Positions 5,397 through 63,187 of a DNA stretch of 64,000 bases are shown piece by piece; position 1 is the stretch's first letter, and the number at the start of each line of letters is the position of its first letter. Position numbers and translations under genes: made by a program. Under the pieces are notes generated by a model. The model was not told where the DNA came from and made no database searches. It saw only the letters and a list, made by a program, of their open reading frames with translations. This DNA is from Calditrichaceae bacterium (GTDB taxonomy: Bacteria; Calditrichota; Calditrichia; Calditrichales; JBFXGD01): positions 64,001 through 128,000 of the forward strand of contig JBFXLE010000009.1 of the NCBI GenBank assembly GCA_050173015.1. Reading direction: 5' to 3'.

Positions 5397-5429
5397 TCGC
5401 AATTCCTTCCGTTTCCTTTATTAGATAAT

Positions 5430-42042: not shown

Positions 42043-42059
42043 TTAATTGTAAAAAAAAT

Positions 42060-42131
42060 ATATAAACAATGGTTCATACACCGCCAATTTGGGGGGATAA
42101 GAACAATGGGATATATACGAACGTTATGGGC
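42060..42131 (+). repeat. attI-like site, copy 1
   Basis: Conserved ~65-bp block shared with 46508-46580 and 55378-55451; similarity ends at the GTT core (42123) where cassette 1 begins. Confidence 0.7.
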
Positions 42132-42254
42132 AAGGCAATGAAAGAAAACGCAATGGGAGTAATATTGTCAGGAAATAGAAAGTTGGAGACTAAAAATAGC
42201 TAATATAGATGAATGTTTTGAGAAAATAAAAATAGATTCTAAAGAGAAAATATT

Positions 42255-43721: not shown

Positions 43722-43856
43722 GCCCATAACAATGCATATACTTTATGGCGGGTTCCGTTATGAAAATGAGTATTTTAGTTTCAAATATAAATCAGTGTGG
43801 ACAGAAAGATTTGTCTTCCAAAGTCCGCCACAAAGCATATGCTTCCCGTTATGCAC
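43722..43856 (+). repeat. attC-like site 1
   Basis: GCCCATAAC...GTTATGCAC; inner arms GCATATACTTTATGGCGG / CCGCCACAAAGCATATGC. Confidence 0.85.
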
Positions 43857-45084: not shown

Positions 45085-45219
45085 GTGCCTAACATCGGCT
45101 ATAGCAAATGCGGGCTAAAGTGCTATAATGAAAGTAATTACACATAATAAACCAACTGCTAGTCGGACAAGTAAGTACCTTGAAACCCCGCACTTTCCAT
45201 AGCCATGACCGTTAGCTGC
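45085..45219 (+). repeat. attC-like site 2
   Basis: GTGCCTAAC...GTTAGCTGC; arms GGCTATAGCAAATGCGGG / CCCGCACTTTCCATAGCC. Confidence 0.85.
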
Positions 45220-46142: not shown

Positions 46143-46254
46143 GGGTTTCAGTGGTATGCAAAGGGTTGTAGTGTAGCCCGCTCCAACTTTTCGTGTAACT
46201 TGATAGGAAATCACCCGCAATCCCTTACTGGCCATATTGTCAAGCGTTAGCTCC
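46116..46254 (+). repeat. attC-like site 3
   Basis: GCAGCTAAC...GTTAGCTCC; arms CAATATAGCCAATAAGGG / CCCTTACTGGCCATATTG. Confidence 0.85.
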
Positions 46255-46310
46255 AAGGCTAAAAAATAGAAACAAAAAGAATAAAATATTTGCCAAAAGG
46301 ATGAAAATAG

Positions 46311-46490
46311 AACGCCGCCTATGCGGCGTTATTGTTTTGCGACGCGGTTGCTTGCGCAGGGTACGGATTTAAGATATATTCAGGAGTAGTTATGTCATAT
46401 TAGTCCCGGGACGACTGAACTGCACACGTCTCAAATAAGTCAATTGATTGAATAAGGAATTCTGTTGATGATATTTTTGAAAGGGATTAG
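46311..46490 (+). pseudogene. Tyrosine recombinase C-terminal remnant, copy 2
   Basis: TPPMRRYCFATRLLAQGTDLRYIQE*L...; near-identical to 41863-42042. Confidence 0.85.
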
Positions 46491-46507
46491 TTAATCGTAA
46501 AAAAAAT

Positions 46508-46580
46508 ATATAAACAATTGTTCATATACCGCTGATTTGGGTGGATAAGAACAATAACATATACACGCACGTTAGGTTGC
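46508..46580 (+). repeat. attI-like site, copy 2
   Basis: TATATAAACAATTGTTCATA...GATAAGAACAATAACATATACACGCAC then GTTAGGTTGC (46571). Confidence 0.7.
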
Positions 46581-46595
46581 ATTAAAAAAGAAACC

Positions 46596-47845: not shown

Positions 47846-47982
47846 GCAACCTAGCACGCAATAAAAAACATAGGGCAGAAAGTGCAAAAATTGAACGACA
47901 TAACATTTAATAAACGACTTGGTAACTTGACAGGGAAGTGCTTCGAAATGCCAAACGTTTCATATACGTAACCGATAGCGTT
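47846..47982 (+). repeat. attC-like site 4 (degenerate cores)
   Basis: GCAACCTAGC (AAC to AGC) ... GATAGCGTT (GTT to GAT); arms still partly complementary. Confidence 0.75.
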
Positions 47983-48070
47983 CATTGTAAGGAGACAAAA
48001 CAACCGTCAGAATAATTATGGTATTTTTGCTGCATGAAGAAAAAAGAAAATATGGAAATAGCCACCGCAC

Positions 48071-48133
48071 AAATGGCATATTTGGTTTTTGCCGACGCAC
48101 AGCCAAACGCTGAAAAAACCAAAAGAGCCATTT
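48071..48133 (+). repeat. Inner hairpin motif H1 (5' end of cassette 5)
   Basis: AAATGGC-ATA-TTTGGTTTTT ... AAAAACCAAA-AGA-GCCATTT. Confidence 0.75.
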
Positions 48134-48163
48134 CTTGCCATCTCACGACTGAAAGATAATGAT

Positions 48164-51010
48164 ATGACAACATATAAAAATCAAAATCCTGAACAAATAG
48201 CCAGAGACAAAATTGACAAAATGTTAATTGAAGCTGGTTGGATTGTTCAATCTAAAAATGAAGTTGACTTGGGTGCAGGCAGAGGTGTTGCGTTGAGAGA
48301 ATACCAAACGGAAACAAAATTTGCGGATTATGTGCTGTTTGTTGACAAAAACCCTGTTGGAATTATTGAGGCAAAAAAAGAAGACGAAGGACATAAACTA
48401 ACCGTAGCGGAAGACCAAGCCTCTGAATATGCCAAAGCAAAACTAAAATATTTGGATAACGACCCATTGCCTTTTGTTTTTGAGAGTACCGGAACAATAA
48501 CCCGTTTTAGAGATACACGAGACCCAAAACCAAGAGGGCGACATATTTTTTGGTTTTACCGTCCCGAAACATTGGCGGAATGGCTACAAAAAGATAAAAG
48601 TTTAAGAGGTAGATTATTAGATATTCCGCAATTAAATGAGACTGGGCTTCGCCCTGCTCAAATTAAGGCGATTAATAACCTTGAACAATCTTTTAAAAAG
48701 AACAAGCCAAAAGCTTTAATACAAATGGCTACCGGAGCAGGTAAAACTTTTACTGCCTGTACTTTTGTGTATCGCTTATTGGAACACGCCAAAGCCAAAC
48801 GGATTTTATTTTTGGTTGACACCAAAAACTTAGGAGAACAAGCAGAACAGGAGTTTATGGCTTTTCAGCCCAACGACAGCAATCGCAAATTCACAGAATT
48901 GTATAATGTACAGCGTCTTACTTCAAGCTACATAGCAAGCGATAGTCAGGTTTGTATCTCTACCATTCAACGGATGTATGCCATTTTAAAAGGTGAAGAA
49001 CTAGACGAAGGAGCCGAAGATACAAACCCGAACGAATCGACCTGGATGGAACAACAGCGAAATAAAAAACAGGCAATGCCTGTGGAATATTCTGCCAAAG
49101 TACCCATTGAACAATTCGATTTTATTGTAATTGATGAATGCCACCGCTCTATTTACAATCTTTGGAAACAAGTGTTGGATTATTTCGATGCTTTCCTTAT
49201 CGGCTTAACTGCCACACCCGATAAGCGAACTTTTGGCTTTTTTGAGGAAAATGTAGTGAGCGAATATACCTATGAAGAATCTGTGTTGGATGGTGTAAAT
49301 GTTCCTTACGATGTGTACAATATTGAAACTGAAATTTCGCAAAAAGGCAGTGTGATAAAAGCAGGTTGGTTTGTGGACAGACGAGATAAGCTCACCCGAA
49401 AAACGCGTTGGCAACAAGAAGATGAAGACACCGAATATTTGAAAAACGATTTGGATAAAAAGGTCGTTAATCCAAGCCAGATACGGAATATTATTCGCCA
49501 ATACAAAAAAGCATTGGAAACCGAAATTTTCCCGAACAGAAAAGACGAAAATGGAGAATACGAAGTTCCTAAAACACTGGTTTTTGCAAAAACTGACAGC
49601 CACGCGGATGATATAATCAAAATCATTCGTAAAGAATTTGACGAAGGCGATGATTTCTGCAAAAAACTGACTTATAAAATAAAAGAAGACCCAAAATCGG
49701 TGTTAAACCGTTTTCGGAATTCATATCATCCCCGCATTGCGGTTACGGTAGATATGATTGCAACGGGAACCGATGTAAAACCTTTGGAAGTGTTGTTGTT
49801 TATGCGTGATGTTAAAAGCACCAACTACTTTGAACAAATGAAGGGTAGAGGAACACGCACCATTAACAAAGATGCTTTTCAGGCAAACAACACCAATGTA
49901 AAAGGGGCTTGCAAAACCCATTTTATTATTGTGGATGCAGTTGGCGTAACAAAGTCGAAGAAAACCGACAGCCGGCCTTTGGAACGCAAACCAACTGTAG
50001 CCTTAAAAGATTTATTGGGAGCGGTAACAATGGGAGTTACCGAAGAAGATTTGTTTCTTTCGCTTGCAAATCGTTTGATACGATTAGAAAAAGAAATTAC
50101 CGACAAGGAAAAAGATAAATTACTGGAACATTCCAAAGGCAAAAATCTGAAACAAATCAGCAAAGAATTATTATCGGCTTTTGATAAAGATGAAATTGAA
50201 AACAGAGCACAGGAAAAAATTGAAAAATTCTGTAAAGACGCCCTACAGGGCGTCTCTTCTGCTGCCGATTTATCTCCGGCACAAATAGAATCTTTCCGAC
50301 AGGACGCACAGAAAGAATTGATTAATACCGCCGCTTCTACTTTTAACGGAAAGCTGAACGATTATATTGAAAAAGTGCGTATGGAACACGAGCAAATTAT
50401 CGACAGCCACAATATCGACACCGTAACAAAATCGGAATGGGACACCGCTTCGGTGGATAAAGCCAAAGAAACTGTAAAAGATTTTAACGAATACCTCGAA
50501 GCCAATCAGGACGAGATAAAAGCATTGACCATTTTTTACAAACAACCCTACAACCGCCGAAACATTACCTTTAAAATGATTAAAGATGTGTTTGATAAAC
50601 TGAAATTGGATAAACCCACCCTTGCCCCCGATTATGTTTGGGCGGCATACAGCCAATTGGAAGAGGTAAAAAGCAAACAACCGATTGACGAACTCACCGC
50701 GTTAATTTCGTTAATTCGCAGGGCTTGCGGAATTGACAGCGAGTTGAAAGCTTTTGATTCCACCATTGACGAAAATTTCAAAAACTGGATTTTCAAACAA
50801 AACGCAGGCAAGCACAACCGCTTTACAACCGAACAAATGGACTGGCTGCGAGAACTGAAAAATCACGTAGTAAATTCGTATCACATAGAAATTGAAGACC
50901 TCGATTATACACCCTTTGATGAAAAAGGAGGACGTGGCAAAATGTACCAACTCTTTGGTGCCGAAATGAACGATATTATTAATGAACTTAACGAGGTATT
51001 AGCAGCATAA
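48164..51010 (+). CDS. hsdR: Type I restriction enzyme, R subunit (cassette 5)
   Basis: ADYVLF...IIEAKK nuclease motif, MATGAGKT, DECH, TATP, QMKGRGTR. ATG 48164 is preferred because the track start 48089 lies inside hairpin H1. Confidence 0.95.
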   Translation: MTTYKNQNPEQIARDKIDKMLIEAGWIVQSKNEVDLGAGRGVALREYQTETKFADYVLFVDKNPVGIIEAKKEDEGHKLTVAEDQASEYAKAKLKYLDNDPLPFVFESTGTITRFRDTRDPKPRGRHIFWFYRPETLAEWLQKDKSLRGRLLDIPQLNETGLRPAQIKAINNLEQSFKKNKPKALIQMATGAGKTFTACTFVYRLLEHAKAKRILFLVDTKNLGEQAEQEFMAFQPNDSNRKFTELYNVQRLTSSYIASDSQVCISTIQRMYAILKGEELDEGAEDTNPNESTWMEQQRNKKQAMPVEYSAKVPIEQFDFIVIDECHRSIYNLWKQVLDYFDAFLIGLTATPDKRTFGFFEENVVSEYTYEESVLDGVNVPYDVYNIETEISQKGSVIKAGWFVDRRDKLTRKTRWQQEDEDTEYLKNDLDKKVVNPSQIRNIIRQYKKALETEIFPNRKDENGEYEVPKTLVFAKTDSHADDIIKIIRKEFDEGDDFCKKLTYKIKEDPKSVLNRFRNSYHPRIAVTVDMIATGTDVKPLEVLLFMRDVKSTNYFEQMKGRGTRTINKDAFQANNTNVKGACKTHFIIVDAVGVTKSKKTDSRPLERKPTVALKDLLGAVTMGVTEEDLFLSLANRLIRLEKEITDKEKDKLLEHSKGKNLKQISKELLSAFDKDEIENRAQEKIEKFCKDALQGVSSAADLSPAQIESFRQDAQKELINTAASTFNGKLNDYIEKVRMEHEQIIDSHNIDTVTKSEWDTASVDKAKETVKDFNEYLEANQDEIKALTIFYKQPYNRRNITFKMIKDVFDKLKLDKPTLAPDYVWAAYSQLEEVKSKQPIDELTALISLIRRACGIDSELKAFDSTIDENFKNWIFKQNAGKHNRFTTEQMDWLRELKNHVVNSYHIEIEDLDYTPFDEKGGRGKMYQLFGAEMNDIINELNEVLAA
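50232..50259. repeat. Degenerate REP palindrome in frame inside hsdR
   Basis: GTAAAGACGCCC-TACA-GGGCGTCTCTTC, translated as CKDALQGVSS. Confidence 0.7.
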
Positions 51011-52548
51011 TGAGAGAAGATTGGATTGACGTTGAATTAAAAGATGTTTGCCTAAGTTCAAAGGGAAAGAAACCAAGTGTTTTAGAAAAAAATAATTCTG
51101 AAACTGCTAATGTGCCATATATAAATATCAAAGCTTTTGAGAAAGGTATAATAGAAGAATACACTGATGGTGAAAAATGCAATTTATGTGAAGATGGTGA
51201 CTTGTTAATGGTTTGGGATGGTGCAAGGGCTGGGCTTACAGGTAAAGCTAAAAAAGGTGCTGTTGGTTCAACACTAATGAGAATTGAAGAAGTAAAAGGT
51301 ATTGAAAAGGAATATTTATATTATTTTCTTTTATCACTTTTTACAAAGATTAATACAAATCCAAGAGGTGTTGGTATTCCACATGTTGAACCACGAATAC
51401 TATGGTTGTCAAAAGTATTAATTGTTAGCAGTCCCATCCAACGAGCAATAGTATCCAAAATCGAAGCCCTGTTTTCCGATTTGGACAACGGCATCGCCAA
51501 TTTAAAAAAAGCACAGGAGCAATTAAAAATATACCGTCAAGCGGTTTTGAAAAAGGCCTTTGAGGGCGAACTCACAAAAGAATGGCGTGAAAAGATTGTA
51601 CAGACGCCCAATTTGGGCGTATCAACGCCCCTGCCAACAGCCGAAGAACTGCTAAAACAAATAAAAGAAGAACGCCAAAACCACTACAACCAACAAATTG
51701 AAGACTGGAAAAAAGCGGTTAAGGAATGGGAGAAAAATGGGAAAGTTGGGAAGAAGCCAAGTAAGCCTAAGCAGCAAAAAGAATTGCCACCTTTAAATGA
51801 GGAAGAATTGAATGAGCTGCCGAAATTGCCAAAGTCAATGGTATGGACACAACTTGGAAATGTGGTTTGGTCTGTAAAAGATGGACCTCATTTTAGCCCT
51901 AAATATTCAAAAACTGGTATACCCTTTATCTCAGGTGGGAATATTAGACCAGAAAAAATTGACTTTGAAAAAGTAAAATATATTTCAGAAGAGCTTCATA
52001 AGGAACTAAGTCGAAGATGTAAACCACAATTAGATGACATTCTATACACCAAAGGCGGAACAACTGGAATTGCAAAAGTTAATACATATAAATTTGATTT
52101 TAATGTTTGGGTGCATGTAGCAGTATTAAGACCAATCCAAATGATTTTACCATTATATTTACAACATGTTTTAAATTCTTCTCATTGTTATAAACAATCG
52201 CAAGAATATACACATGGGGTTGGTAATCAAGATTTAGGTTTAACAAGAATGATTTTAATCACACTGCCTATTTGTTGTAAAGAAGAACAAACCCAAATCG
52301 TCCAAGAAATAGAAAGCCGTTTATCGGTTTGCGACAAAGTAGAGCAAAGCATAACCGAAAGCCTTGAAAAAGCCGAAGCCCTTCGCCAAAGCATTCTTAA
52401 AAAAGCATTTGAGGGCAAATTATTAAGCGAAGCTGAAATAGAACAATGCAAAAAGGCAGCCGATTACGAACCTGCGGCAAAATTGTTGGAACGAATAAAA
52501 CAGGAAAAAATAAATAAGGATAATAATAAAAAAACAAAATCAAAATAA
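51010..52548 (+). CDS. hsdS: Type I restriction enzyme, S subunit (cassette 5)
   Basis: Two TRDs with repeated conserved blocks Q..IVS.IE...RQAVLKKAFEGEL and EQTQIVQEIE...RQSILKKAFEGKL. Confidence 0.94.
   Translation: MREDWIDVELKDVCLSSKGKKPSVLEKNNSETANVPYINIKAFEKGIIEEYTDGEKCNLCEDGDLLMVWDGARAGLTGKAKKGAVGSTLMRIEEVKGIEKEYLYYFLLSLFTKINTNPRGVGIPHVEPRILWLSKVLIVSSPIQRAIVSKIEALFSDLDNGIANLKKAQEQLKIYRQAVLKKAFEGELTKEWREKIVQTPNLGVSTPLPTAEELLKQIKEERQNHYNQQIEDWKKAVKEWEKNGKVGKKPSKPKQQKELPPLNEEELNELPKLPKSMVWTQLGNVVWSVKDGPHFSPKYSKTGIPFISGGNIRPEKIDFEKVKYISEELHKELSRRCKPQLDDILYTKGGTTGIAKVNTYKFDFNVWVHVAVLRPIQMILPLYLQHVLNSSHCYKQSQEYTHGVGNQDLGLTRMILITLPICCKEEQTQIVQEIESRLSVCDKVEQSITESLEKAEALRQSILKKAFEGKLLSEAEIEQCKKAADYEPAAKLLERIKQEKINKDNNKKTKSK
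51598..51626. repeat. Degenerate REP palindrome in frame inside hsdS
   Basis: GTACAGACGCCCAATTTGGGCGTATCAAC, translated as VQTPNLGVST. Confidence 0.8.
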
Positions 52549-52599
52549 TTGTGAAACGCGTTGGACGTATTTGTCGCATTTGACGCGTTGGACGCATTG

Positions 52600-52628
52600 G
52601 TAGAGACGCCCAATTTGGGCGTCTCTAC
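52600..52628. repeat. GTAG-type REP palindrome upstream of the RAYT
   Basis: GTAGAGACGCCCAA-T-TTGGGCGTCTCTAC, perfect 14-bp arms. Confidence 0.88.
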
Positions 52629-52700
52629 GACGACGATCCCTACGATCCCGATCCCGACGACGACAATATCGTTCACGTTCACAATAACGAAAACAAAAAT

Positions 52701-53312
52701 ATGCCCGATAAATTTCAAAACAAATACCGCATACCATCGGCACGATTGCAAACATGGGATTATGGAAGCAATGGAACCTATTTTATAACCATTTGCACCC
52801 AAAACCGTGAACATTATTTTGGTGAAATTACAGACGGTAATATGATATTATCCGAAATAGGAATTTTGGCGAACAAATATTGGAATGAAATACCAGAACA
52901 TTTTCCATTTGTCAATTTGGATGAATTTGTGGTAATGCCCAACCACGTGCATGGGATTATTATCATTGATAAACCCGATGATGGACGGGATGATGGGCGG
53001 GACGTTGGACGGGACGTTGGACGGGACGTAGAGACGCCCAAATTGGGCGTCTCTACCAATACCAATACCAATACCAATACCAATCATCAAACCGCCACGG
53101 CATCCGAAAAATGGAAACCGGCATCATTGGGGGTAATTATCAACCAATATAAACGAATGGCAACCATTAAATCGCGTAAAATCCACGCTGATTTTGGTTG
53201 GCAATCCCGTTTTTACGACCAGATCATACGAAACAACGAATCGTATGAAAAAATCAGAAATTATATTGTCAACAACCCATTGAAATGGGAAGAAGATAAA
53301 TTTTACAATTAA
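52701..53312 (+). CDS. REP-associated tyrosine transposase (RAYT, Y1 HUH family)
   Basis: SARLQTWDY...YFITICT, VVMPNHVHGII (HUH), WQSRFYDQIIRN...YIVNNP. Confidence 0.92.
   Translation: MPDKFQNKYRIPSARLQTWDYGSNGTYFITICTQNREHYFGEITDGNMILSEIGILANKYWNEIPEHFPFVNLDEFVVMPNHVHGIIIIDKPDDGRDDGRDVGRDVGRDVETPKLGVSTNTNTNTNTNHQTATASEKWKPASLGVIINQYKRMATIKSRKIHADFGWQSRFYDQIIRNNESYEKIRNYIVNNPLKWEEDKFYN
53028..53056. repeat. GTAG-type REP palindrome in frame inside the RAYT gene
   Basis: GTAGAGACGCCCAA-A-TTGGGCGTCTCTAC (VETPKLGVST), flanked by 12-bp and 6-bp tandem repeats. Confidence 0.88.
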
Positions 53313-53327
53313 ATTGAAAGAAATAAT

Positions 53328-54848
53328 ATGTCAGAAAGTGCAATAGTATCAAAAGTGTGGAATTTCGCCAATGTTCTTAGAGACGATGGAGTGGGTTATG
53401 GTGATTATTTAGAGCAAATCACCTATTTGCTTTTCCTAAAAATGGCAGACGAACTTAACAAACCGCCCTACAATAAAGGTTTAAAATTTCCGAAACTCAA
53501 AAATGCTGAGGGTGTTGAATTGCCCGATGCCGAAACCTGCGACTGGCAAACGCTGTCGCAAAAACGTGGTTTGGAATTGGAAAATTTTTACAACCAAATG
53601 CTACGAAGTTTGGGAAGCGAAAAAGGAACGTTGGGGCAAATTTTCGTAAAAAGTCAAAACAAAATACAAGACCCATCAAAACTCTTAAAAATCATTGATA
53701 TGATTGATAAAGAGCAATGGAGCTTAATGGGAACCGATGTAAAAGGGAAAATTTACGAAGGTCTTTTAGAGAAAAATGCCGAAGACACCAAAAGCGGTGC
53801 AGGGCAATATTTTACGCCTCGTTCGCTCATCAAAACAATGGTGGCTTGTGTTCGTCCCAAACCCATGAAAACCATTATAGACCCTGCTTGTGGCACTGGC
53901 GGTTTCTTTTTGGCAGCTTACGATTATATCAAAAGTCAGAATTTAGACCAGGAAGAAAAGGAGTTTTTGAAAAACAAAACTTTCTACGGAAACGAAATTG
54001 TAGCCAATACACGCAGAATGTGTTTGATGAACATGTTTTTGCACAACATTGGCGAAATTGATGGCGAAACACTCATTTCTTCAGCTGATGCTTTGGTTTC
54101 GGACAATGGCATACGCTACGATTATGTGCTGGCAAATCCGCCTTTTGGTAAAAAAAGCAGTATGACCATTACCAACGAAGAGGGCAAACTGGAAAAGCAG
54201 GATTATACTATCAATCGTCAGGATTTTGTGGCTACCACAGCCAACAAGCAACTAAACTTTTTGCAACACATAAAAACGCTTTTAAAACTCACAGGCGAAG
54301 CAGCCGTTGTACTTCCCGATAATGTTTTGTTTGAGGGCGGAGCAGGCGAAACGGTTCGGAAAGAATTGATGAAAACAACCGAATTGCATACAATTTTAAG
54401 ACTTCCAACAGGTATATTTTACGCACAAGGTGTAAAAGCAAATGTTTTGTTTTTCGACAACAAACCAGCTTCAAAAGAGGCTTGGACAAAAGATGTTTGG
54501 ATTTATGATTATCGAAGTAACATAAGCCACACATTAAAGAAAAACCCAATGCGATTTGAGCATCTACAGGAATTCGTAAAACTCTACAATCCCGAAAACC
54601 GAAATAAAAGAACAGAAACGTGGAGCGAAACAAATCCCGAAGGCAGATGGAGAAAGTATAGTTATGCTGAAATCATTGAACGAGATAAAACCAACTTGGA
54701 TATATTTTGGATTAAAGACAAAAGCTTAACCGACTTAGATAATTTACCCGACCCCGATATTTTGGCAAACGAAATCATTGAAAACATTGAAGCCGGATTA
54801 AATAGTTTTAAAGAAATAATGGAAACAATAAACGGAGATGAAAGCTAA
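53328..54848 (+). CDS. hsdM: Type I restriction-modification N6-adenine methyltransferase (cassette 5)
   Basis: GQYFTPR, DPACGTGGF, NPPF, LRLPTGIF. Confidence 0.96.
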   Translation: MSESAIVSKVWNFANVLRDDGVGYGDYLEQITYLLFLKMADELNKPPYNKGLKFPKLKNAEGVELPDAETCDWQTLSQKRGLELENFYNQMLRSLGSEKGTLGQIFVKSQNKIQDPSKLLKIIDMIDKEQWSLMGTDVKGKIYEGLLEKNAEDTKSGAGQYFTPRSLIKTMVACVRPKPMKTIIDPACGTGGFFLAAYDYIKSQNLDQEEKEFLKNKTFYGNEIVANTRRMCLMNMFLHNIGEIDGETLISSADALVSDNGIRYDYVLANPPFGKKSSMTITNEEGKLEKQDYTINRQDFVATTANKQLNFLQHIKTLLKLTGEAAVVLPDNVLFEGGAGETVRKELMKTTELHTILRLPTGIFYAQGVKANVLFFDNKPASKEAWTKDVWIYDYRSNISHTLKKNPMRFEHLQEFVKLYNPENRNKRTETWSETNPEGRWRKYSYAEIIERDKTNLDIFWIKDKSLTDLDNLPDPDILANEIIENIEAGLNSFKEIMETINGDES

Positions 54849-54863
54849 GCCCAGCCCAAAAAC

Positions 54864-54921
54864 CATACACATTTGCAATTCGCGCGAGCCAACGCTTGAC
54901 CAAAAATTGCAAAAGAGTATG
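54864..54921 (+). repeat. Inner hairpin motif H2 (3' end of cassette 5)
   Basis: CATAC-ACA-TTTGCAATT ... AATTGCAAA-AGA-GTATG. Confidence 0.75.
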
Positions 54922-54990
54922 TCTTGCCAACGCACGGACAGAGAATGCAGCAAAAATGAAAGATAAATTGGCTGGAAAAATAAACAACGA

Positions 54991-55123
54991 AACGCTAACA
55001 CGCGGTATAAAACATTGGGGTTTAAGTATTTATTCGAGCGTTCTACCCCGCATCAAGTTCGGTGTAACTCGACAGGATAGTAGCCCGCAATCCCTTACGA
55101 GTCATACACTCAAAGTTAGTTCC
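54991..55123 (+). repeat. attC-like site 5
   Basis: AACGCTAAC...GTTAGTTCC; shares CCCGCAATCCCTTAC with site 3 and CGCAATCCCTTAC with site 7. Confidence 0.82.
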
Positions 55124-55179
55124 AAGCCTAAAAAATAGAAACAACAAGAATAAAATATTTGCCAAAAGGATGAAAATAG

Positions 55180-55361
55180 AACGCCGCCTATGCGGCGTTA
55201 TTGTTTTGCAACGCGGTTGCTTGCACAGGATAGGGATTTAAGGTATATTCAGGAGTAGTTAGGTCATAATCGTTCCGGGACTACTGAAATTTGCGCACAT
55301 CTCAAAAAAGTCTATTGATAAAAACAGTAATCCTACGGATGATATCTTTGAAAGGGATTAG
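55180..55361 (+). pseudogene. Tyrosine recombinase C-terminal remnant, copy 3
   Basis: TPPMRRYCFATRLLAQDRDLRYIQE*LGHNRSGTTEICAH: the catalytic Tyr position reads Cys. Confidence 0.87.
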
Positions 55362-55377
55362 ATAATTGTAAAAGAAA

Positions 55378-55451
55378 TATATAAACAATTGTTCATACAC
55401 CGCCAATTTGGGCGGATAAGAACAATAGAATATATACGAACGTTGTGTGGC
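55378..55451 (+). repeat. attI-like site, copy 3
   Basis: TATATAAACAATTGTTCATACACCGCCAATTTGGGCGGATAAGAACAATAGAATATATACGAAC then GTTGTGTGGC (55442). Confidence 0.7.
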
Positions 55452-55484
55452 ATTAGAAGTAACTTACATAAAAAAGGGTGACTT

Positions 55485-56072
55485 ATGGAAATAAAATTTG
55501 ATGTGGAAATACAAGATGAAGAGAAAGAACTTCTGAAAACGATATTACATTGTGATAATGATGAAGACTTAAATAATCTCTTGAATAAATTAGGCCGTTC
55601 TTCATTTGAAGATATTAGAAGAATGACAATTGGACAAAAAGTATTTACTCGTGGAAGAGATATTTTAGAATATCGGTTATTTAATTTAATAAAGTTTTTC
55701 TTCGATGGGAAAATACCAGACGAACAAAAAATATGTGATTTATTCCAAATAACGGCAACTGAAAGTCGAGCATTTATTCGCTCAATAATGTCAAAGTATC
55801 AATATGACTTAAAAGAAACAATATCTTCAACATTAAAAGAACAAGTAGAAAATATTCAAAAAGAAGAAAATGAAGAAGTTTATAAACTTTCCATTCAAAA
55901 CCAGTATTTCAAAGATGAATTAAATAGAATATTAGGAACAATAGACACAAGTTTACCGATTATTGAAAAAGAGCGGGGAACTATTTCTACTTATGTAATT
56001 CAAACATCATCTTACCAGAAGTTATGTGAACATTTTGGCATTGAACTAGAAGAAGAAAACAATGAAAACTGA
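55485..56072 (+). CDS. Hypothetical protein with possible HTH (cassette 6)
   Basis: 195 aa; PDEQKICDLFQITATESRAFIR is HTH-like. Confidence 0.75.
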   Translation: MEIKFDVEIQDEEKELLKTILHCDNDEDLNNLLNKLGRSSFEDIRRMTIGQKVFTRGRDILEYRLFNLIKFFFDGKIPDEQKICDLFQITATESRAFIRSIMSKYQYDLKETISSTLKEQVENIQKEENEEVYKLSIQNQYFKDELNRILGTIDTSLPIIEKERGTISTYVIQTSSYQKLCEHFGIELEEENNEN

Positions 56073-56481
56073 TTTACCTAATTTATTAACTGCATCAAGT
56101 ATTCTATTGGGAATTATTACTGCATTATATGGTTTATTTTTTCCTGCGATTAATTCAATTTTAGTAATAAAATCTAAGCCCCATAAGGTTGATAATAAGA
56201 AGGCCTACAGTGAAAGCAAGGATATTATAAAAGCAAAATATATTCCATTATTAATTGGTTCGTTAGTAATTACATTGATAAACATACCAGAGCTGTTTTC
56301 TCAATTAAGAAATAGTTTTGTTGCAATAAAAACTAGTGGAATAGAGAACACAACATATGATACGTTAACAGCATCATTTATTGTCGTTTGCCTTTTTATG
56401 ATTTTCATTACGATAATGATGATAGCAACTGGTTTTAAGTTAAGAAAGAAAATAAAAGAACTTAATCCAAATGAACAATAA
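56062..56481 (+). CDS. Hypothetical membrane protein, about three TM helices (cassette 6)
   Basis: 139 aa, overlaps the upstream gene; stop lies 1 bp before attC-like site 6. Confidence 0.78.
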   Translation: MKTDLPNLLTASSILLGIITALYGLFFPAINSILVIKSKPHKVDNKKAYSESKDIIKAKYIPLLIGSLVITLINIPELFSQLRNSFVAIKTSGIENTTYDTLTASFIVVCLFMIFITIMMIATGFKLRKKIKELNPNEQ

Positions 56482-56482
56482 C

Positions 56483-56619
56483 GCCACACAACAAAAAATA
56501 TAGTGCATTTGGCAGATGGTGCTAAAAATGAAAATGATTGCAATAAATGAACATAGTAGTAAATTGAAAGCTTGGAGCGTTGAAATGCCAAACGCACCAT
56601 ATTCAAACCGTTGTATGCC
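56483..56619 (+). repeat. attC-like site 6
   Basis: GCCACACAAC...GTTGTATGCC; arms AATATAGTGCATTTGGCA / TGCCAAACGCACCATATT. Confidence 0.85.
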
Positions 56620-56643
56620 ATGCTGGAAACGAGCTAACCGCAC

Positions 56644-56705
56644 AAATAGCACATTTGGTTATTGCTGACACAAAAGCAAAGGCTGAAAAACTAAAAGAGC
56701 TATTT
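56644..56705 (+). repeat. Inner hairpin motif H3 (5' end of cassette 7)
   Basis: AAATAGC-ACA-TTTGGTT ... AACTAAA-AGA-GCTATTT; homologous to H1. Confidence 0.75.
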
Positions 56706-56737
56706 TATTGTCAAACGCACATAGACTAAAACTAAAA

Positions 56738-59700
56738 ATGAATGAAGAAATAGTATCAGCAAGTGGAGAAAGAGCAGCAATGGGAGGCTATTTGCCTCAA
56801 TTTGATGAGTTCGCTTGGTTTGTCTATTTGAATCTAATAAATAAAAAGCTTGAATGGATACGAATAGCAGACTCCAAGGCTGAAAAACTAGATGATATAC
56901 AGTATTCTACTCATTCAGAAATTCATGCATACCAAGTAAAATGGACTATCGCTGATGCAAATATATCATTTGCAAATTTTACGGATTTGTTTCCTCTTAT
57001 CACCTCTAGTTGGAAGAGTTTAAAAACAGCTAATCCTAGCAAAAAAATAATTCCTCATTTAATCACTAACAAACCTATTTCCTCCCACGACAGCTTAAAG
57101 GTAGGCGATACAAAAATCGGTTCATTTCAAGACTTCGTCTCAGAAGTTTGGGTAAAGCTAAAATCAAATCAATCAATTGATGATAAGTGGAAACAAGTTC
57201 TTGAGGAACTCAAAAAGAGTTCAAAACTCAATGATTCTGAATTTGGAGAATTTATCATCTCTTTTGATTTTCAACCAGACTATAAACAAAAACAGTTTAG
57301 TATAGGAAATATTAAATACTCTAAAGAAGACGAAGACCTTCAACAGATCAGTCGATATATAGTACAAAAAGTTGCTAGCCCGAAAAGAGTCGTTGAATTT
57401 ACTCGCCAAGAAATTATTAAAGAATTAGGTTGGTCTGATAGATTTAAAACAATTTTTAATCACGAGTTAATAGTCGATAGACAAAGATACCAGCCGATTC
57501 AATCGACAATTGACCTGTTAAATTCAAAGTTAGAGGAGCATAAAAATGGATACCTGTTTTTGCTAGGTGGCCCAGGTTCTGGAAAATCTACCTTATTGAA
57601 TCAATGGTCAAAAGGCCTTAAAACACGAATAATACGATACTACGCCTTTGATTTCGTTAATCCATCTTCACACTTAAACTTTTATGAAAGAGGAAATGCT
57701 ACCCATCTTTTTTTCGATTTAGTTTTTCAATTAAAGGAAGCTGGAATATATAAAAGAGACATTCTTCCATATAAAGACTTACTTTTTCTAAAAGATGTAT
57801 TCAATGAGCAATTAAGTGCAATTGGAGAGGACTTTGTGACAAATGGTCAATCGACCATAATATTGATTGATGGTCTAGATCATGTTCCTAGGGAATACAA
57901 ATCAACAACTAATAGTTTCCTACGAGAACTTCCTTTACCATCTTCTCTCCCAAACGGGGTCTTCATCATTTTAGGTAGTCAATCTTATGAACTTGAAGAC
58001 ATTCAACAGGAAATTAAAACTGAATTTCAGAAAGGAAATAGAACCATTCAAATTGATCCACTTAAAAAGGAGGAAGTATACAAGTACATTGATAATCTTG
58101 ATACTTCAATTCAACTTAATGGTTCTCAAAAGCTGCAAATATTTGAGAAATCAGAAGGACACCCGTTATACCTGTCATACTTAATTGAAAAAATCAATAA
58201 CGCAGATTCTATTAACGATACAATCGAATCTTTTGAAGTTATTGATGGTAGTATTGATAATTATTACAAAAAAATATGGGAGCCTATCCAGAAAGAAGAT
58301 AGCCAAATTCAATTCTTAGGTTTAATTGCGAGAATTAATGGTTTGATCAAACTTCAGTTCATTCAGGAATGGGACTTCCAACCGAGTGTTTTAAAGTCCT
58401 TTCGTGAAAAGGCCAGATTTCTGTTTAATGAAACCGAAAAAACTTTGTCTTTCTTTCATAATTCGTTCAAGCAATTCCTTCTTCATCATACCTCTTTAAA
58501 TTACTTAACAGATGAGTTTGATCCGACAATTAACGTCAATTATCATAGTCAACTTACTGATTATTATGTAAAATCAGAGATTGAAAAATCCTGGAAACAG
58601 AATCATCACCTATTTCAGGCTAAACAATATGATAAGTTTATTTCAGAAGTTACCCCAAATAGTATTACTGAACAGTTACTTAACTTCAGACCAGCAGAAG
58701 AAATTAAGCAGGATGCAAAATTGGGAGTTGAAATAGCAAGACAGAATAAGGACATTAATACTCTGGTAAGATATCTGTTTTCATTAGCAGAAATTGAAAG
58801 AAGATTATTCAATATTGATCCCACATCCTTTATAGAAGAACTTTTGTACCTAAATAAATACGACTTAGCAAGGGATTATCTAAGAACTGGCAACACCCTC
58901 CATTGTAGCGAATCGTACGCATTTAAAGCATGTCGATTGTTTATTGAATCTGGGCACAAATCAGAAGGAGCAACTTTATACAATTTGGCTTATCCAGAAA
59001 TCATTACAGATTCCGGGATACATATTGATGATTCTCACAGATATGAAGAAATAAGAGATTCTTTAGAAGAATGGATTTATACTTCTCCCTATTTTGAAGC
59101 AACCGAGAATATTTTCTCAATAATTGAGAAAATTCAATTCTCAGGTAGCATACGGAAAAACAGGTTTGAAGAAGAAGAATCTGATTTACTTTTAAGGTTA
59201 CTCTCTAATCTTGGTTATAGTTTAGTGGATCAAAACAAGTGGGATGATTTTAATAAAGTCATAGAAAAAATAGATTCGAGGTCTTCAAGAGGAAGGAATT
59301 CTCTTTTCCAACTTATAAAGTACGCTATCGAGCAATGCCTTGACTTAAAAGATAGTAGTCGAGTGAATGAATATCTGTCATTTTTAACCACTCATTTCAC
59401 AAAAGAGAAGACAAAATCCATTGGCAAAATATTCATTGCAGATTTAGTCTATAAAGTCACTAGAGACCTAAATGAAACATATAGTTGGATTAAGGAAGTT
59501 GAGCAACCATCTAATGTGGGTAAAGACCAGCTAGGATATGATGATTCGTTAGACGCCTTTCTTCCATTAATCAAACTTAACAAGTTACTTAACCTATGTG
59601 GAAAAGGAGTTTCGATTACGTCTGCAATTCCATCTGTTGCGAAAGGTACTGATGAAGAAGTTTTAGTGGAGTTTGAACGAATGTTATGTATTACCACTCA

Positions 59701-62700
59701 AATTCTAGCCGAGGGCATTCTTCAAACACCAATGCCAGGTGATCCTATTAAAAGAGTATTTCCAATTGTTCGGTTTTATTACAAAGAAATATCCCACCGA
59801 AACAGCTATTGGTATAAGCTGACACAAGCAAAAGGCCAATATTATGATTTTTTGATTTCGGCGGTGTCTGAATTGGGTACTGAAAAATTAGAATTATTAG
59901 GAGATTATTTGTTCAGTGAGTTTAAGAATATTCCAAAATATTGGAGTACAAGTGTCCAGCGGAAAATCATTAAATCCCTCTTGAATAAAGGGTTTAATGC
60001 TAAAAAAGCAGTAATAAAGTTGAGATCCATAGAGGATTCCATGTTGGAAGGTCACGATATAGATGGCCGTATAACCGAATGCTTGGCCCACTCAAAAGTA
60101 TGGTTCATTTTAGGCAAGCTAGATGAAGGTGAAATATGGCTCAAACAGGCTATTCAAGAATCTATTGGAGTAGGATATAGAAAAGATTATCAATTTAGTA
60201 CATGGATTGAATGGTTAAGAAAAATAAACCATAAAGACCCATCAAAAGCTACTGAAAGAATAAAGTGGTTCTTATCTCATTTAAAACATATTAAAGAAAC
60301 CACGGAGGGAAGGGCTTATTGGAATGCTTCTGAAGAATTATTAGAAGTCGCATATGAACACAATCTGGAAGATGGCTTAGAGCAGGCTATTTGGCAATTA
60401 AAGAACGATCTAATAGACTTTAAAGATTCAATTGCTCTTTTCATAAAATATTTTATGATAAAAACAAAAAGTAAAGAAGAGTTCAAAAGTATTGTTCAAC
60501 TATATAGTGATTTATATCTGCTTCTTGCTGAATCTGCCAATTCTTCCCTGCTCAAATCTATCTTAGAAAAAGGGCATGAAATTTTAAAAGAAGATTTTTT
60601 AGTAGAACATGCTCAAGCCATTATTTCGGCAATAGAAATTAAAGCTTACGAAGAAACCAGACATTACTTACTATCTGAAATTGATAACTTCTATACATCA
60701 AAAGGGCTAAAAGCAGAAGACTATTATTCACGGTTTAATATACCGGCAAAAAGCGAAAGAAATAGTTCATCAACATCTTCTAACACATTGACTTTAAAGA
60801 CAGATCATGAAAAGATTGATGAAAGTGAAGTACTAAAACGAGTTACAAATTTTGAAGATTTCAAAAAAATCATTCAAGAAGAAGATCAGGCAAATTCATT
60901 TTTTAATTGGTCAAAGGTTATAGATAAAATAGCTCCATTATTGTCTTCAAGTCAAATTGAAGAAATCACCAAACTGGCTAGAATAGGAAGGAGAGAGTCA
61001 GATTTCTATGCTAAATTAAGTGAGGCTGCCTTGGAGCTAGAAAACACAGAACTCGCAACTAGTTTAGCCAATAAAAGTATTGAGTTATCGAGCGAATCGG
61101 GGTGGGTAAAATATTATGATGGAGGAACAAGAATCAATGCATTTAATGCACTAAAACGAATCAATCCTGCAATATCATCTAATAAGGCATTTGAAGTATT
61201 TGCTCATGATATAGTAACCAGTAATTATCCAAGTTCATATATCGAACATCTTGAAGACATCGTTCCACTTTTAACAGAAAATTATGTTGAGGAAGAGCTT
61301 TGGCATGAAATATATGGTTACCTGCAAAGACTGATGTCGAATAGTAAACCGGTTGAGGATTTACCTGTTCTTCCATCATTAAATCGTCCAATCATAGAAA
61401 CCTTAGTCGATTATATGGTGTATTTATCACAGAGTCCCGTCTCAATAATAAAGGAGCAATCTTTACAGCTATTGGCAAAATATATAAATCAAGATAATGA
61501 CTATGCTTTGACTCAATTACTGAATGGACGTTTAGATGATTACTCAAGTATGAACGTGATGATGAAATTAACTGCGTTCAACTCCCCCAAAGTCCATTTG
61601 CTTAAATCAAAGATCAATAGTTTAGCTATATCAAATGACTATCAATTAAGAGAAAGCTCAAAACAAATACTTTCCTCAATTCAAGAAGAAATTCCAACTC
61701 CCAAAAACATCGAATTATCTAAAGTATACTCTTTCCATATTCCAGAAACTGAAAAACCAGATTTTAGAAAAGAGATTGACCCTTATTTCCCAGAAGTTGA
61801 TACTAATGACCCCCGTGATCTGATACGACCATTTGAATTTTTAATCAAAATCTTATCTGAGGAGTCTGGGATTAATGAATCTAACCTTATATATAGAGCC
61901 TACTCGATCATGAAAGAAATTGGTCGAGAGGAGGAATGGTCCGTTGAGTATGAAAAAAAGCTTAGAAATCATTTAGAAGAAATTTACCTAAGATACTCTT
62001 ACCCTAGACCAAGGGTAATTGCGGCTCGAAGAGCCATAATGCATGTCACCAATGAATTAATAGATTCTGGAACAATTGATGATGAGCGAATTCAGAAACC
62101 TTTTATATCACATGATTATGCGGTTCTGTTTTTTAATGAAATAGCAAAACCTGAATTCATTCAAACTATTAAAGAGAGAGATTTTGGAGGAGTTGGCAAT
62201 GATTGGTTAGATCGAATAGGTGAATCAGAAAGATTAAACGAATCAATATTAGACTATAATGATAACTTCAAGATTATTGCAGAATATAATCAAGTTAAAA
62301 ATTTAGATTGGGGTTCTCCTACTGAAGAATACATGTACCAAATTGCGGTTAATGAGGAGTTGGATGAAGAAGATAATTACATTTTTGGCTCTGTTTTTCA
62401 CCAATTAAGCAGTAACTATCATGATTTGAGAAGTGGTGGACATTTTATTGTTGTAGTCAGGGATCATAGATTTGACCAATTTGATCTGAAATCTAAGTGG
62501 ATTGCAATTAACCCTGTTTTGGCTAGATACTTAGGATGGGAGCCTGAAACAACCAAATTATTTGCTTGGAAAAACTCGCAAGGTGAATTGATGGCGGAAT
62601 CAATTTATTGGTCAAATGGAAATATTAACATGACACCTCGTAAGGATGGAGAAGTCGGGGAAGGGTGGTTTGTTATTGTTTCCAAAGATGGATTAGAGAA

Positions 62701-62809
62701 GATAAAATCTATCGAGAAGAAATTGTTTCTGCAAAAGAAATTAACAAGATCTAAATTTGAAGATTCAGTTCTAATGAATAATCAAGCAATTAGTGTGACA
62801 AAAATTTGA
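56738..62809 (+). CDS. PD-(D/E)xK nuclease - STAND/NACHT NTPase - helical repeat protein, Avs/NLR-like (cassette 7)
   Basis: N-terminal AAMGGYLPQ...KLDDI...AYQVKW nuclease motif, Walker A GGPGSGKST, Walker B ILIDGLD, EGHPLYL (GxP), long helical C-terminus. ATG 56738 is preferred over track start 56708. Confidence 0.85.
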   Translation: MNEEIVSASGERAAMGGYLPQFDEFAWFVYLNLINKKLEWIRIADSKAEKLDDIQYSTHSEIHAYQVKWTIADANISFANFTDLFPLITSSWKSLKTANPSKKIIPHLITNKPISSHDSLKVGDTKIGSFQDFVSEVWVKLKSNQSIDDKWKQVLEELKKSSKLNDSEFGEFIISFDFQPDYKQKQFSIGNIKYSKEDEDLQQISRYIVQKVASPKRVVEFTRQEIIKELGWSDRFKTIFNHELIVDRQRYQPIQSTIDLLNSKLEEHKNGYLFLLGGPGSGKSTLLNQWSKGLKTRIIRYYAFDFVNPSSHLNFYERGNATHLFFDLVFQLKEAGIYKRDILPYKDLLFLKDVFNEQLSAIGEDFVTNGQSTIILIDGLDHVPREYKSTTNSFLRELPLPSSLPNGVFIILGSQSYELEDIQQEIKTEFQKGNRTIQIDPLKKEEVYKYIDNLDTSIQLNGSQKLQIFEKSEGHPLYLSYLIEKINNADSINDTIESFEVIDGSIDNYYKKIWEPIQKEDSQIQFLGLIARINGLIKLQFIQEWDFQPSVLKSFREKARFLFNETEKTLSFFHNSFKQFLLHHTSLNYLTDEFDPTINVNYHSQLTDYYVKSEIEKSWKQNHHLFQAKQYDKFISEVTPNSITEQLLNFRPAEEIKQDAKLGVEIARQNKDINTLVRYLFSLAEIERRLFNIDPTSFIEELLYLNKYDLARDYLRTGNTLHCSESYAFKACRLFIESGHKSEGATLYNLAYPEIITDSGIHIDDSHRYEEIRDSLEEWIYTSPYFEATENIFSIIEKIQFSGSIRKNRFEEEESDLLLRLLSNLGYSLVDQNKWDDFNKVIEKIDSRSSRGRNSLFQLIKYAIEQCLDLKDSSRVNEYLSFLTTHFTKEKTKSIGKIFIADLVYKVTRDLNETYSWIKEVEQPSNVGKDQLGYDDSLDAFLPLIKLNKLLNLCGKGVSITSAIPSVAKGTDEEVLVEFERMLCITTQILAEGILQTPMPGDPIKRVFPIVRFYYKEISHRNSYWYKLTQAKGQYYDFLISAVSELGTEKLELLGDYLFSEFKNIPKYWSTSVQRKIIKSLLNKGFNAKKAVIKLRSIEDSMLEGHDIDGRITECLAHSKVWFILGKLDEGEIWLKQAIQESIGVGYRKDYQFSTWIEWLRKINHKDPSKATERIKWFLSHLKHIKETTEGRAYWNASEELLEVAYEHNLEDGLEQAIWQLKNDLIDFKDSIALFIKYFMIKTKSKEEFKSIVQLYSDLYLLLAESANSSLLKSILEKGHEILKEDFLVEHAQAIISAIEIKAYEETRHYLLSEIDNFYTSKGLKAEDYYSRFNIPAKSERNSSSTSSNTLTLKTDHEKIDESEVLKRVTNFEDFKKIIQEEDQANSFFNWSKVIDKIAPLLSSSQIEEITKLARIGRRESDFYAKLSEAALELENTELATSLANKSIELSSESGWVKYYDGGTRINAFNALKRINPAISSNKAFEVFAHDIVTSNYPSSYIEHLEDIVPLLTENYVEEELWHEIYGYLQRLMSNSKPVEDLPVLPSLNRPIIETLVDYMVYLSQSPVSIIKEQSLQLLAKYINQDNDYALTQLLNGRLDDYSSMNVMMKLTAFNSPKVHLLKSKINSLAISNDYQLRESSKQILSSIQEEIPTPKNIELSKVYSFHIPETEKPDFRKEIDPYFPEVDTNDPRDLIRPFEFLIKILSEESGINESNLIYRAYSIMKEIGREEEWSVEYEKKLRNHLEEIYLRYSYPRPRVIAARRAIMHVTNELIDSGTIDDERIQKPFISHDYAVLFFNEIAKPEFIQTIKERDFGGVGNDWLDRIGESERLNESILDYNDNFKIIAEYNQVKNLDWGSPTEEYMYQIAVNEELDEEDNYIFGSVFHQLSSNYHDLRSGGHFIVVVRDHRFDQFDLKSKWIAINPVLARYLGWEPETTKLFAWKNSQGELMAESIYWSNGNINMTPRKDGEVGEGWFVIVSKDGLEKIKSIEKKLFLQKKLTRSKFEDSVLMNNQAISVTKI

Positions 62810-62831
62810 CCATGAATCCAAACGCTCGCAT

Positions 62832-62893
62832 CCATACACATTGGCAAATCGCACAGGACAGCCACACCAGCCAAAATTTGCCAAAGAGTATGG
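62832..62893 (+). repeat. Inner hairpin motif H4 (3' end of cassette 7)
   Basis: CCATAC-ACA-TTGGCAAAT ... ATTTGCCAA-AGA-GTATGG; homologous to H2. Confidence 0.75.
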
Positions 62894-62932
62894 CTGCACC
62901 AACGCCGCCAGAAAAGAAAATGAAAAAGCACG

Positions 62933-63059
62933 GGCATACAACAATGTGTATAATTCATAAGGGTTTCAGCGGATTGCAAGCCGTATCACCCGCATCAAAT
63001 TCGGGTGGTAACTTGATAAGTAAAAAGTTCGCAATCCCTTACGAATCATAGTTAGCTCC
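62933..63059 (+). repeat. attC-like site 7 (right spacer deleted)
   Basis: GGCATACAAC...GTTAGCTCC; arms TATAATTCATAAGGG / CCCTTACGAATCATA joined directly to GTT. Confidence 0.8.
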
Positions 63060-63132
63060 AAGGCTAAAAAATAGAAACAAAAAGAATAAAATGTTTGCCA
63101 AAAGAATAGAAATAAAAGCCACCGCACAGTAA

Positions 63133-63187
63133 GCACATTTGCAATTCGCGCGAGCCGGCGCGAAAACCAAAAATTGCAAAAGATTGC
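63133..63187 (+). repeat. Inner hairpin motif H5 in the terminal cassette stub
   Basis: GC-ACA-TTTGCAATT ... AATTGCAAA-AGA; closest to H2. Confidence 0.65.

Follow-up and report, generated by a model that had tools for sequence, protein, structure and literature searches.

Covarying hairpins inside both ends of large cassettes in an integron-like array: candidate folded-DNA accessory modules

In a 64,000-nt stretch of a Calditrichaceae genome (assembly GCA_050173015.1, contig JBFXLE010000009.1, positions 64,001 to 128,000; hereafter the window, meaning this whole stretch), two large gene cassettes, one carrying a type I restriction–modification (R-M) system and the other a gene for a 2023-aa STAND ATPase, are each bracketed by hairpins belonging to a single structured family. 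Here, we report that these hairpins form a widespread family whose stems covary, which means that the hairpin structure is under selection, and that they are inner end-modules rather than cassette boundaries, true attC sites of about 130 nt flanking them in a fixed register. The family is missing from Rfam and is apparently undescribed. As for its role, we tentatively favour a reading, quite possible while still short of probable, in which the hairpins extend the attC as accessory modules of folded DNA and bind a putative protein through exposed GCCAACGC boxes.

A structured and covarying hairpin family

The window holds five copies (H1 to H5), of two types that differ in sequence and in their position relative to the cargo:

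48060..48152, forward strand: H1, 5'-position (L-type) element; stem-loop 48071-48133; 92.6 bits
54852..54941, forward strand: H2, 3'-position (R-type) element; stem-loop 54863-54922; 83.6 bits
56633..56724, forward strand: H3, 5'-position (L-type) element; stem-loop 56644-56705; 70.1 bits
62820..62913, forward strand: H4, 3'-position (R-type) element; stem-loop 62832-62893; 79.6 bits
63117..63209, forward strand: H5, solitary chimeric copy; stem-loop 63129-63190; 88.2 bits, with mismatched outer pairs

Each site consists of an outer stem of 6-7 bp, an internal loop A(C/T)A opposite AGA, an inner stem of 9-10 bp and a terminal loop of about 25 nt. The original prediction, made from the letters of the window, had described five hairpins of about 60 nt with this architecture and with covarying stem pairs, and these were present as described. 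All five of its positions proved real, the second stem starting at 54863 instead of 54864; its 60 nt correspond to the stem-loop of a conserved unit that measures about 93 nt with both flanks included; and the likeness it saw among the five is complete for H1 to H4 only, as H5 has an intact inner stem and a broken outer stem (3 of 7 pairs). ViennaRNA returns the two-part stem for H1–H4, with the middle C-G of the bubble paired so that two A.A mismatches are left, and gives a different structure as the minimum-energy fold of H5. When folded as DNA, H1 reaches -16 kcal/mol (z -5.2), and the z-scores of H2 to H5 are -3.0, -1.1, -3.9, and -3.5, H3 being the weakest fold and no better than its shuffles, of which 29 in 200 reach the same stability.

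R1, a covariance model derived from these five hairpins, scores them at 70-93 bits, the next match in the window reaching 11.8 bits (E 0.69, filters off), and across the whole 4.34-Mb genome it matches only H1–H5, all of them in one cassette array. A strict structure scan of both strands of the genome gave four hits, three of which are H1, H2, and H4. The hairpins had also been said to be absent from small cassettes; this is true of the family, the hairpin at 55378-55437 within a repeat of about 340 nt (described below) being weakly similar and not significant (10.3 bits, E 1.6).

R1 copies were found in 9 of the 39 genomes of the window's order, and those of a second model, R2, in 11 of the 86 genomes of its class, all inside the same order. 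Species-representative genomes contained at least 127 stretches that match a three-motif pattern, mostly in Bacteroidota; among the matches listed, most lie in Flavobacteriales, Chitinophagales, Saprospiraceae, Bacteroidales, and Cytophagales, and a few in records titled Ignavibacterium, Balneolales, Calditrichaceae, Caldisericales, and Gammaproteobacteria. Of 78 fetched loci, 77 were confirmed by R2, yielding 105 hits, and five genomes behind named records contain 4 to 34 copies each, in several clusters per genome, with 12 copies in the strain of L101, a record titled Leeuwenhoekiella blandensis MED217. Plasmids gave one hit, in an unannotated Persicobacter replicon, and only six stretches matched in viral contigs, which led us to reject a phage feature.

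The case for selection on the structure comes from two sets of copies. Among 101 distinct copies, 96.0% of the cells are paired against 66.0% in shuffles, with double changes in 14 of 16 pairs; among 20 distinct copies found by the model alone, the figures are 92.0% against 63.6%, with 15 of 16 pairs compensated. The pattern search fixed CACATTTG, AAAGAG, and CCAACGC in the larger copy set, and the same motifs are seen in the order-level set, which is free of that constraint. The module reads, in order, as a left GCCA(A/C)C(C)GCAC box, an outer stem of free sequence, the A.A / C-G / A.A bubble (ACA in 96 and AGA in 98 of 101 copies), an inner stem whose base is TTTG/CAAA, a C/A-rich loop of about 25 nt with a GCCAACGC-like box, and a right box, TTTGCCAACGC, such that GCCAACGC-like boxes recur at three places: the left flank, the loop, and the right flank. 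In the L type the inner stem is TTTGGTTTT and the loop TGCCGACAC..GCCAACGC; in the R type they are TTTGCAATT and CGCACAAGCCAACGC. Outer stems vary freely (AAATGGC, CCATAC, ACAGC, TTGGTGGC, and others), with no conservation of AAC/GTT there, and the unpaired parts are rich in C and A and poor in G (A.38, C.35, G.15, T.11).

Pairing of the outer stem is nevertheless kept almost everywhere, at least 4 of 7 pairs being formed in 124 of 126 copies and at least 5 in 123. The two copies that drop to 3 pairs, H5 and L052:99, are the only ones to combine a mismatched outer stem with a perfect inner stem; H5 joins an L-type left flank to an R-type inner stem and loop, and both have the appearance of two hairpins that exchanged or slipped at their conserved core. 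Some copies carry extra CCAACGC-like boxes with A/T-rich spacers of about 20 nt, located between attC and hairpin or after the R hairpin: this additional module lies upstream of the hairpin in L078, L082, L094, L096, L114:304, L115:779, and L043:1330, and downstream in L086, L102, L114:4722, and L073.

The Infernal/Rfam check that had been proposed returned no family of Rfam release 15 at gathering scores, and none covering a hairpin even at E values up to 5. The literature searched, from which the supplements of two papers were missing, contains no description of these hairpins. Three other identities were considered and rejected. Decayed integrase 3' ends align locally with the elements no better than shuffles do (59 to 252 of 300 as good); a small peptide has an open L-type frame in H1 and H3, but its ATG falls in the covarying outer stem and is not conserved; and a promoter inside the hairpin finds no fitting TAnnTTTG or TTTG spacing.

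Register, cargo, and recombinases of the arrays

To map the cassettes, we relied on an attC covariance model (R3) built from the sites downstream of R hairpins, in place of a naive AAC...GTT energy scan that was noisy and missed known sites. R3 detects seven attC-like sites of about 130 nt in the window (starting at 43724, 45087, 46118, 47849, 54993, 56486, and 62936), which covary in their turn (93% of stem cells paired). The array spans from after a peptidase M49 gene to before a VWA gene. It comprises a Thoeris cassette of 1.7 kb, two cassettes of 1.4 and 1.0 kb, two cassettes of 1.7 and 1.5 kb headed by the 340-nt repeat, the R-M cassette of 7.1 kb (H1 and H2), the STAND cassette of 6.4 kb (H3 and H4), and a terminal piece with H5. 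The features around the hairpins are:

47849..47980, forward strand: attC-like site ending the preceding small cassette, at whose GTT the R-M cassette starts; R3 57.7 bits
48164..54848, forward strand: first cargo, a type I R-M system with hsdR, hsdS, a 203-aa open reading frame (ORF), and hsdM (ResIII, EcoEI_R_C, Methylase_S, N6_Mtase, HsdM_N)
54993..55122, forward strand: attC-like site of the R-M cassette; R3 62.9 bits
56486..56616, forward strand: attC-like site ending the small cassette before the STAND cassette; R3 77.6 bits
56738..62809, forward strand: second cargo, the 2023-aa NACHT/STAND ATPase (NACHT 2.7e-06, just above the cut-off)
62936..63057, forward strand: attC-like site of the STAND cassette; R3 66.4 bits
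63046..63117, forward strand: 72-nt cassette 5' leader (repeat D4), upstream of H5

Within this array, H1 ends 11 nt upstream of the hsdR start codon, and H2 begins 4 nt past the hsdM stop codon and 51 nt ahead of the attC at 54993; H3 begins 16 nt past the attC at 56486-56616, with the STAND gene directly downstream, and H4 begins 11 nt past the STAND stop codon and 22 nt ahead of the attC at 62936. No cargo lies downstream of H5. The same register holds across the family: the L type begins about 19 nt downstream of the crossover GTT of the preceding attC, and the R type starts 3 nt (median) past the final stop codon and 21-50 nt upstream of the cassette's own attC. Indeed, an ORF stop lies at most 40 nt upstream in 57 of 120 distinct elements (median gap 3 nt; 47 of the 57 within 10 nt either way), and of the 62 elements without such a stop, 30 have GTTRNN at most 60 nt upstream, which in 25 of these 30 sits 16-23 nt upstream. 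A same-strand R3 attC is found within 100 nt of 64 of 122 hairpins, the gap showing modes at 10-13 nt when the attC is upstream and at 21-22 or 44-50 nt when it is downstream.

The order attC-hairpin...hairpin-attC is kept by the relatives in the window's order, and it runs throughout 240 kb of two Flavobacteriia genomes. In genome G021, the recombinase is followed by attI, an L hairpin, an 8-kb R-M-like operon, an R hairpin, an attC, and the next cassette, while a mer operon stands between L and R in G031 and an OLD-family nuclease between hairpins in G016. No hairpin cassette with fully reversed cargo was found in the window and the two mapped genomes. These array maps, along with the attC and stop-codon register, bear out the initial view of a second structured, covarying repeat family lying just inside both ends of large cassettes and not scattered at random with respect to them.

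Junctions between records tell the same story of boundaries, as they map to the GTT of true attC sites: records L072 and L113 share one cassette, with homology ending at GTT. On the cargo side, R modules at least 97% identical sit on unrelated cargo in four records, homology stopping at the cargo-side edge of the module, and L113 and L100 share leader and L hairpin before diverging after the 3' box. Once a cassette is excised as a circle, its R hairpin, spacer, attC, leader, and L hairpin would lie together as a single conserved block, the cargo being enclosed by the two boxes; this circle backbone of about 400 nt, in which the hairpins flank the attC, would be common to unrelated cargo.

The association with large cargo was also upheld, as a strong tendency and not as a rule. 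In the window and the two mapped genomes, hairpin cassettes (n=13) have a median length of 6052 nt (range 2703-11614), against 1559 nt for the other cassettes (n=46; Mann-Whitney p 1.8e-6, with kin not independent, and with any missed attC site inflating the sizes). Hairpin cassettes are multi-gene and mostly anti-phage: among 11 of them, eight carry R-M systems of types I, II, and IIG, and the others Hachiman, a mer operon, and an MmeI-like enzyme with an AAA_13 protein. A regulator of the HTH_3 family comes first in 5 of 11 hairpin cassettes of the two Flavobacteriia genomes, and mer operons open with an ArsR-type regulator. Large cassettes devoid of hairpins are mostly swollen by insertion sequence (IS) elements. 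According to one preprint, recombination between two attC sites falls as cassette length rises, and integron defence systems are seen there as "streamlined" to fit size (10.1101/2024.07.02.601686).

The recombinases of these arrays set the system apart from integrons proper. Three other genomes have the ortholog on the strand of the array and upstream of it. The array recombinases of relatives are Xer-like and pass the XerA/integron-integrase model (L030 8548-9390 in G031; L032 13498-14385 in G021), those of two relatives scoring 222 and 214 bits on TIGR02249 (cut-off 265) but passing NF040815. Aligned to IntI4 (2a3v), their match splits, with about 43 residues missing where the IntI-specific insertion lies, and this hallmark of IntI integrases is thus lacking. 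Among solved structures, XerA is their best relative; the arrays nevertheless employ long, folded attC-like sites, and the cassettes are promoter-poor and separated by attC with a GTT crossover (seven sites in the window, dozens in other arrays). The system is therefore integron-like, not an integron. In the window's own genome there is no intact array recombinase, only three decayed 3' ends, all of them within the 340-nt repeats.

Several further features of these arrays were recorded along the way. The 340-nt repeat has three copies (41798-42139, 46246-46587, and 55110-55458), each with a decayed tyrosine recombinase 3' end, which matches the integron-integrase model but is broken by internal stops, followed by a hairpin and an attI-like ...ACG(A/C)ACGTT(A/G)... 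junction; copies 2 and 3 directly follow an attC and the 72-nt leader and head small cassettes. The D4 leader also stands ahead of the repeats at 46241 and 55110 and, in diverged form, ahead of H1. Right after it, inside the recombinase remnant, come GC-rich 8-bp hairpins (AACGCCGCC TATG CGGCGTT) followed by ATTGTTTTG (46311-46330 and 55180-55199), which a terminator scan flags on both strands. The attC-like sites at 43724-43855 and 45087-45217 divide the region after Thoeris into the 1.4-kb and 1.0-kb cassettes. The R-M cassette further contains a family of 29-nt perfect palindromes (GTAGAGACGCCCAA(A/T)TTGGGCGTCTCTAC; 51598-51626, 52600-52628, and 53028-53056) and a 12-nt tandem repeat (52965-53024), near hsdS and the 203-aa ORF. 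Elsewhere, three mini-cassettes of 178-179 nt hold little beyond a second, shorter attC-like site (G088 1552423-1552601, 1563152-1563330, and 1659064-1659243; L169-L175), two of them directly following hairpin cassettes. Finally, a 515-aa DDE transposase (DUF772 / DDE_Tnp_1_6) comes immediately after attC in at least four cassettes (L178/L179, G086 2764694, 2770272, 2778012, and 2785700; and L177), which suggests that an IS with a DDE transposase targets these attC sites.

Readings of the hairpins' role

Under the reading that we tentatively prefer, the modules would act at the DNA level, folding when the array is single-stranded or extruded. Once folded, they would expose their boxes to a protein, either the Xer-like cassette recombinase or a host factor, and the box-bound protein would assist or control the folding and pairing of two distant attC in long multi-gene cassettes; the mechanism as a whole is inferred. 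A protein-binding site, one of the roles suggested at the outset, is compatible with the conservation of predicted single-stranded GCCAACGC boxes.

The wobble pairs of the stems bear on the choice between DNA and RNA. In RNA, G.U is usually about five times commoner than A.C. Across 1587 cells of the hairpins, we counted 16 G.T against 15 A.C, that is, no RNA-type wobble bias, and such a balance would be unlikely if G.U were five times commoner (binomial p 5e-5). The attC sites of the same arrays show 42 A.C against 20 G.T, the bias expected for bottom-strand DNA folding; the hairpins, which have two stems and a conserved ACA/AGA bubble, show no such strand bias. The idea that they form a noncoding RNA or an antitermination element is weakened by this count and by the fact that the same element also occurs after the last gene.

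The strongest competitor holds that the hairpins are RNA-level insulators, which when transcribed would terminate, process, or stabilise RNA: an L element would halt or cleave transcripts reading through from upstream before they reach the cargo promoter, and an R element would close the cargo transcript before the attC, so that self-regulated, potentially toxic cargo is isolated from the array. We consider this unlikely, albeit with an appreciable chance of being right. It would account for the way R elements abut stop codons (a median of 3 nt, as seen in 57 of 120 elements), for the sense orientation of every copy, for the C/A-rich and G-poor unpaired parts, and for the predominance of regulated operons among the cargo (HTH_3 first in 5 of 11, ArsR-type in mer). 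Downstream of 23 of 47 L-position elements stands the Bacteroidota -7 promoter motif TAnnTTTG, at 5.0 per kb where about 0.63 would be expected; the full TTTG..TAnnTTTG form follows 9 of 47, and the window's small cassettes hold a terminator-flagged GC-rich hairpin with a T run at the same post-D4 position (46311, 55180).

What speaks against insulation is, besides the parity of G.U and A.C (16 vs 15), the nature of the tail and of the L-position context. The claim that the hairpins have no terminator-like T tail turned out to be essentially right: the usual tail is TTTGCCAA, just 11 of 126 copies have at least 4 T among the 8 nt after the stem, GCCAACGC follows the stem without a gap in one subtype, and the terminator scan flags none of the five window hairpins. 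In 13 of 47 cases the L element is at most 30 nt away from a start codon, which leaves no room for a promoter, and a true terminator there would silence the cargo. Loops and flanks conserved across phyla are not expected of terminators, and the register to attC is tight. We therefore prefer the DNA-level reading to RNA insulators, given the lack of G.U excess, the few T tails, the L elements near start codons, and the conserved loops and flanks.

A number of observations nonetheless weigh against accessory DNA modules. The wobble test rests on 31 cells only, with which a mild (2:1) strand bias would be compatible; the positions fit RNA ends equally well, with the R type abutting the stop codon, the promoter motif downstream of L elements, and all copies in sense to the cargo; the protein partner of the boxes is putative only; and the boxes found no match in the attI sequences compared. 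As no intact array recombinase exists in the window's genome, its elements may be relics. An R3 attC is missing within 100 nt of 58 of the 122 hairpins, a set that includes copies at contig ends or at attI, copies with an extra box-rich leader (attC 102-188 nt upstream), and copies beside an attC of another class recognised by eye. Most cassettes (46 of 59) do without hairpins, so that the modules are not needed for recombination as such. Length alone does not decide either, since there are true hairpin-less exceptions, a 4.1-kb GmrSD pair and a 2.4-kb XhoI R-M system, and a cassette of about 2 kb with a single OLD-nuclease gene has hairpins.

The original prediction had also raised a second recombination site used to load large cargo, which is poorly supported and which we regard as improbable. 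In this scenario, cargo would be loaded into or swapped within a standard backbone at the hairpins or at the GCCAACGC boxes. The boxes do flank the cargo directly and point in the same direction, near-identical modules are found with unrelated cargo, homology breaking off at the module edge, L113 and L100 differ after the 3' box that follows their common leader and L hairpin, and the two chimeras among 126 copies (H5 and L052:99) appear as if crossed over at the conserved core. Simple slippage deletion could give the same chimeras, however, and with at least 4 of 7 outer pairs in 124 of 126 copies, crossovers within hairpins must be rare. Across phyla, the L and R types stay distinct and each keeps to its own position, contrary to what duplication at every loading event would produce; an L-R tandem without cargo was not seen among the 105 hits, no dedicated recombinase was found in the cargo examined, and record junctions fall at the attC GTT.

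Least credible of all is a selfish REP- or MITE-like hairpin inserting beside attC, with the flanking boxes as target duplications, an idea to which the imperfect palindrome with flanking direct repeats (GCCA(A/C)C(C)GCAC ... GCCAACGC), the high copy number (up to 34 per genome), and the four Y1 transposase genes of the window's genome lend some appeal, but which is countered by the confinement of all five own-genome copies to the array, the ordered L...R pairs flush with ORF ends, the third box in the loop, the location of the Y1 genes on other contigs (C4, C5, C22, C10), and the different palindrome family present in the window (51598, 52600, 53028).

Significance and comparison with known systems

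Classical integron cassettes are small. The related cassette system described here occurs mainly in Bacteroidota, with further examples in records titled Ignavibacterium, Balneolales, Calditrichaceae, and Caldisericales. Its single cassettes can house an entire type I R-M system, Hachiman, a mer operon, or a 2000-aa STAND gene, and it is exactly in these cassettes that a conserved hairpin adjoins each attC on the side of the cargo. Should the hairpins help recombination or insulate expression, this would account for the conversion of large operons into cassettes; the hairpins would also serve as a sequence tag by which to find cassettes of this kind, and the shared backbone would bear on the open question of cassette formation. 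At the least, a widespread covarying element is missing from Rfam. A bolder version of the DNA-level reading, which we regard as doubtful, is that the hairpins form a second structural layer: protein-bound folded-DNA sites that would pair a cassette's two distant attC, or gate the folding of these, let the Xer-like recombinase move intact 3-11-kb defence operons, and mark the 400-nt backbone for cargo. If this pairing of accessory sites were true, defence operons of 3-11 kb would exceed the size limit thought to constrain classical cassettes.

Among the closest known systems is the integron attC, which MacDonald and colleagues reportedly showed in 2006 to be a folded single-strand recombination site of IntI. 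Like attC, our hairpins are imperfect hairpins with two stems, an unpaired spacer, a variable loop, free covariation, a fixed orientation, and a position at cassette ends. They differ in having no AAC...GTT R boxes, whether as terminal R''/R' boxes or as paired AAC...GTT, and in being conserved instead in the bubble, the base of the inner stem, the loop, and the flanks. Moreover, where an integron cassette has a single 3' crossover site, here two hairpins per cassette exist besides the true 130-nt attC, at which the crossovers occur, and the hairpins are missed by R3 and show no bottom-strand wobble bias.

The boxes can themselves be compared with DR1 and DR2 of class 1 integron attI sites, which are extra integrase-binding direct repeats. 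Both are short direct repeats beside a recombination site, and the box contains AAC like an integrase half-site; the hairpin boxes, on the other hand, lie on the attC side, travel with the cassette, and are displayed in hairpin loops and flanks, their binding being putative. Subterminal hairpins of IS200/IS605 and REP/BIME elements, which go with Y1 (HUH) transposases, share with our family conserved mismatches, strand specificity, and left and right versions bracketing cargo, but our hairpins are undispersed and array-confined, with a fixed attC register and no Y1 gene in or next to the cargo. RNase III-type processing hairpins occur between phage T7 genes. These and intrinsic terminators resemble the hairpins in lying after a stop codon or before a promoter and in their two-part stem with an internal loop, from which the family departs by its tail of three T only, its lack of G.U tolerance, and its cross-phylum conservation of loop and flanks. 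Among the families of Rfam release 15, none bears a likeness to these hairpins.

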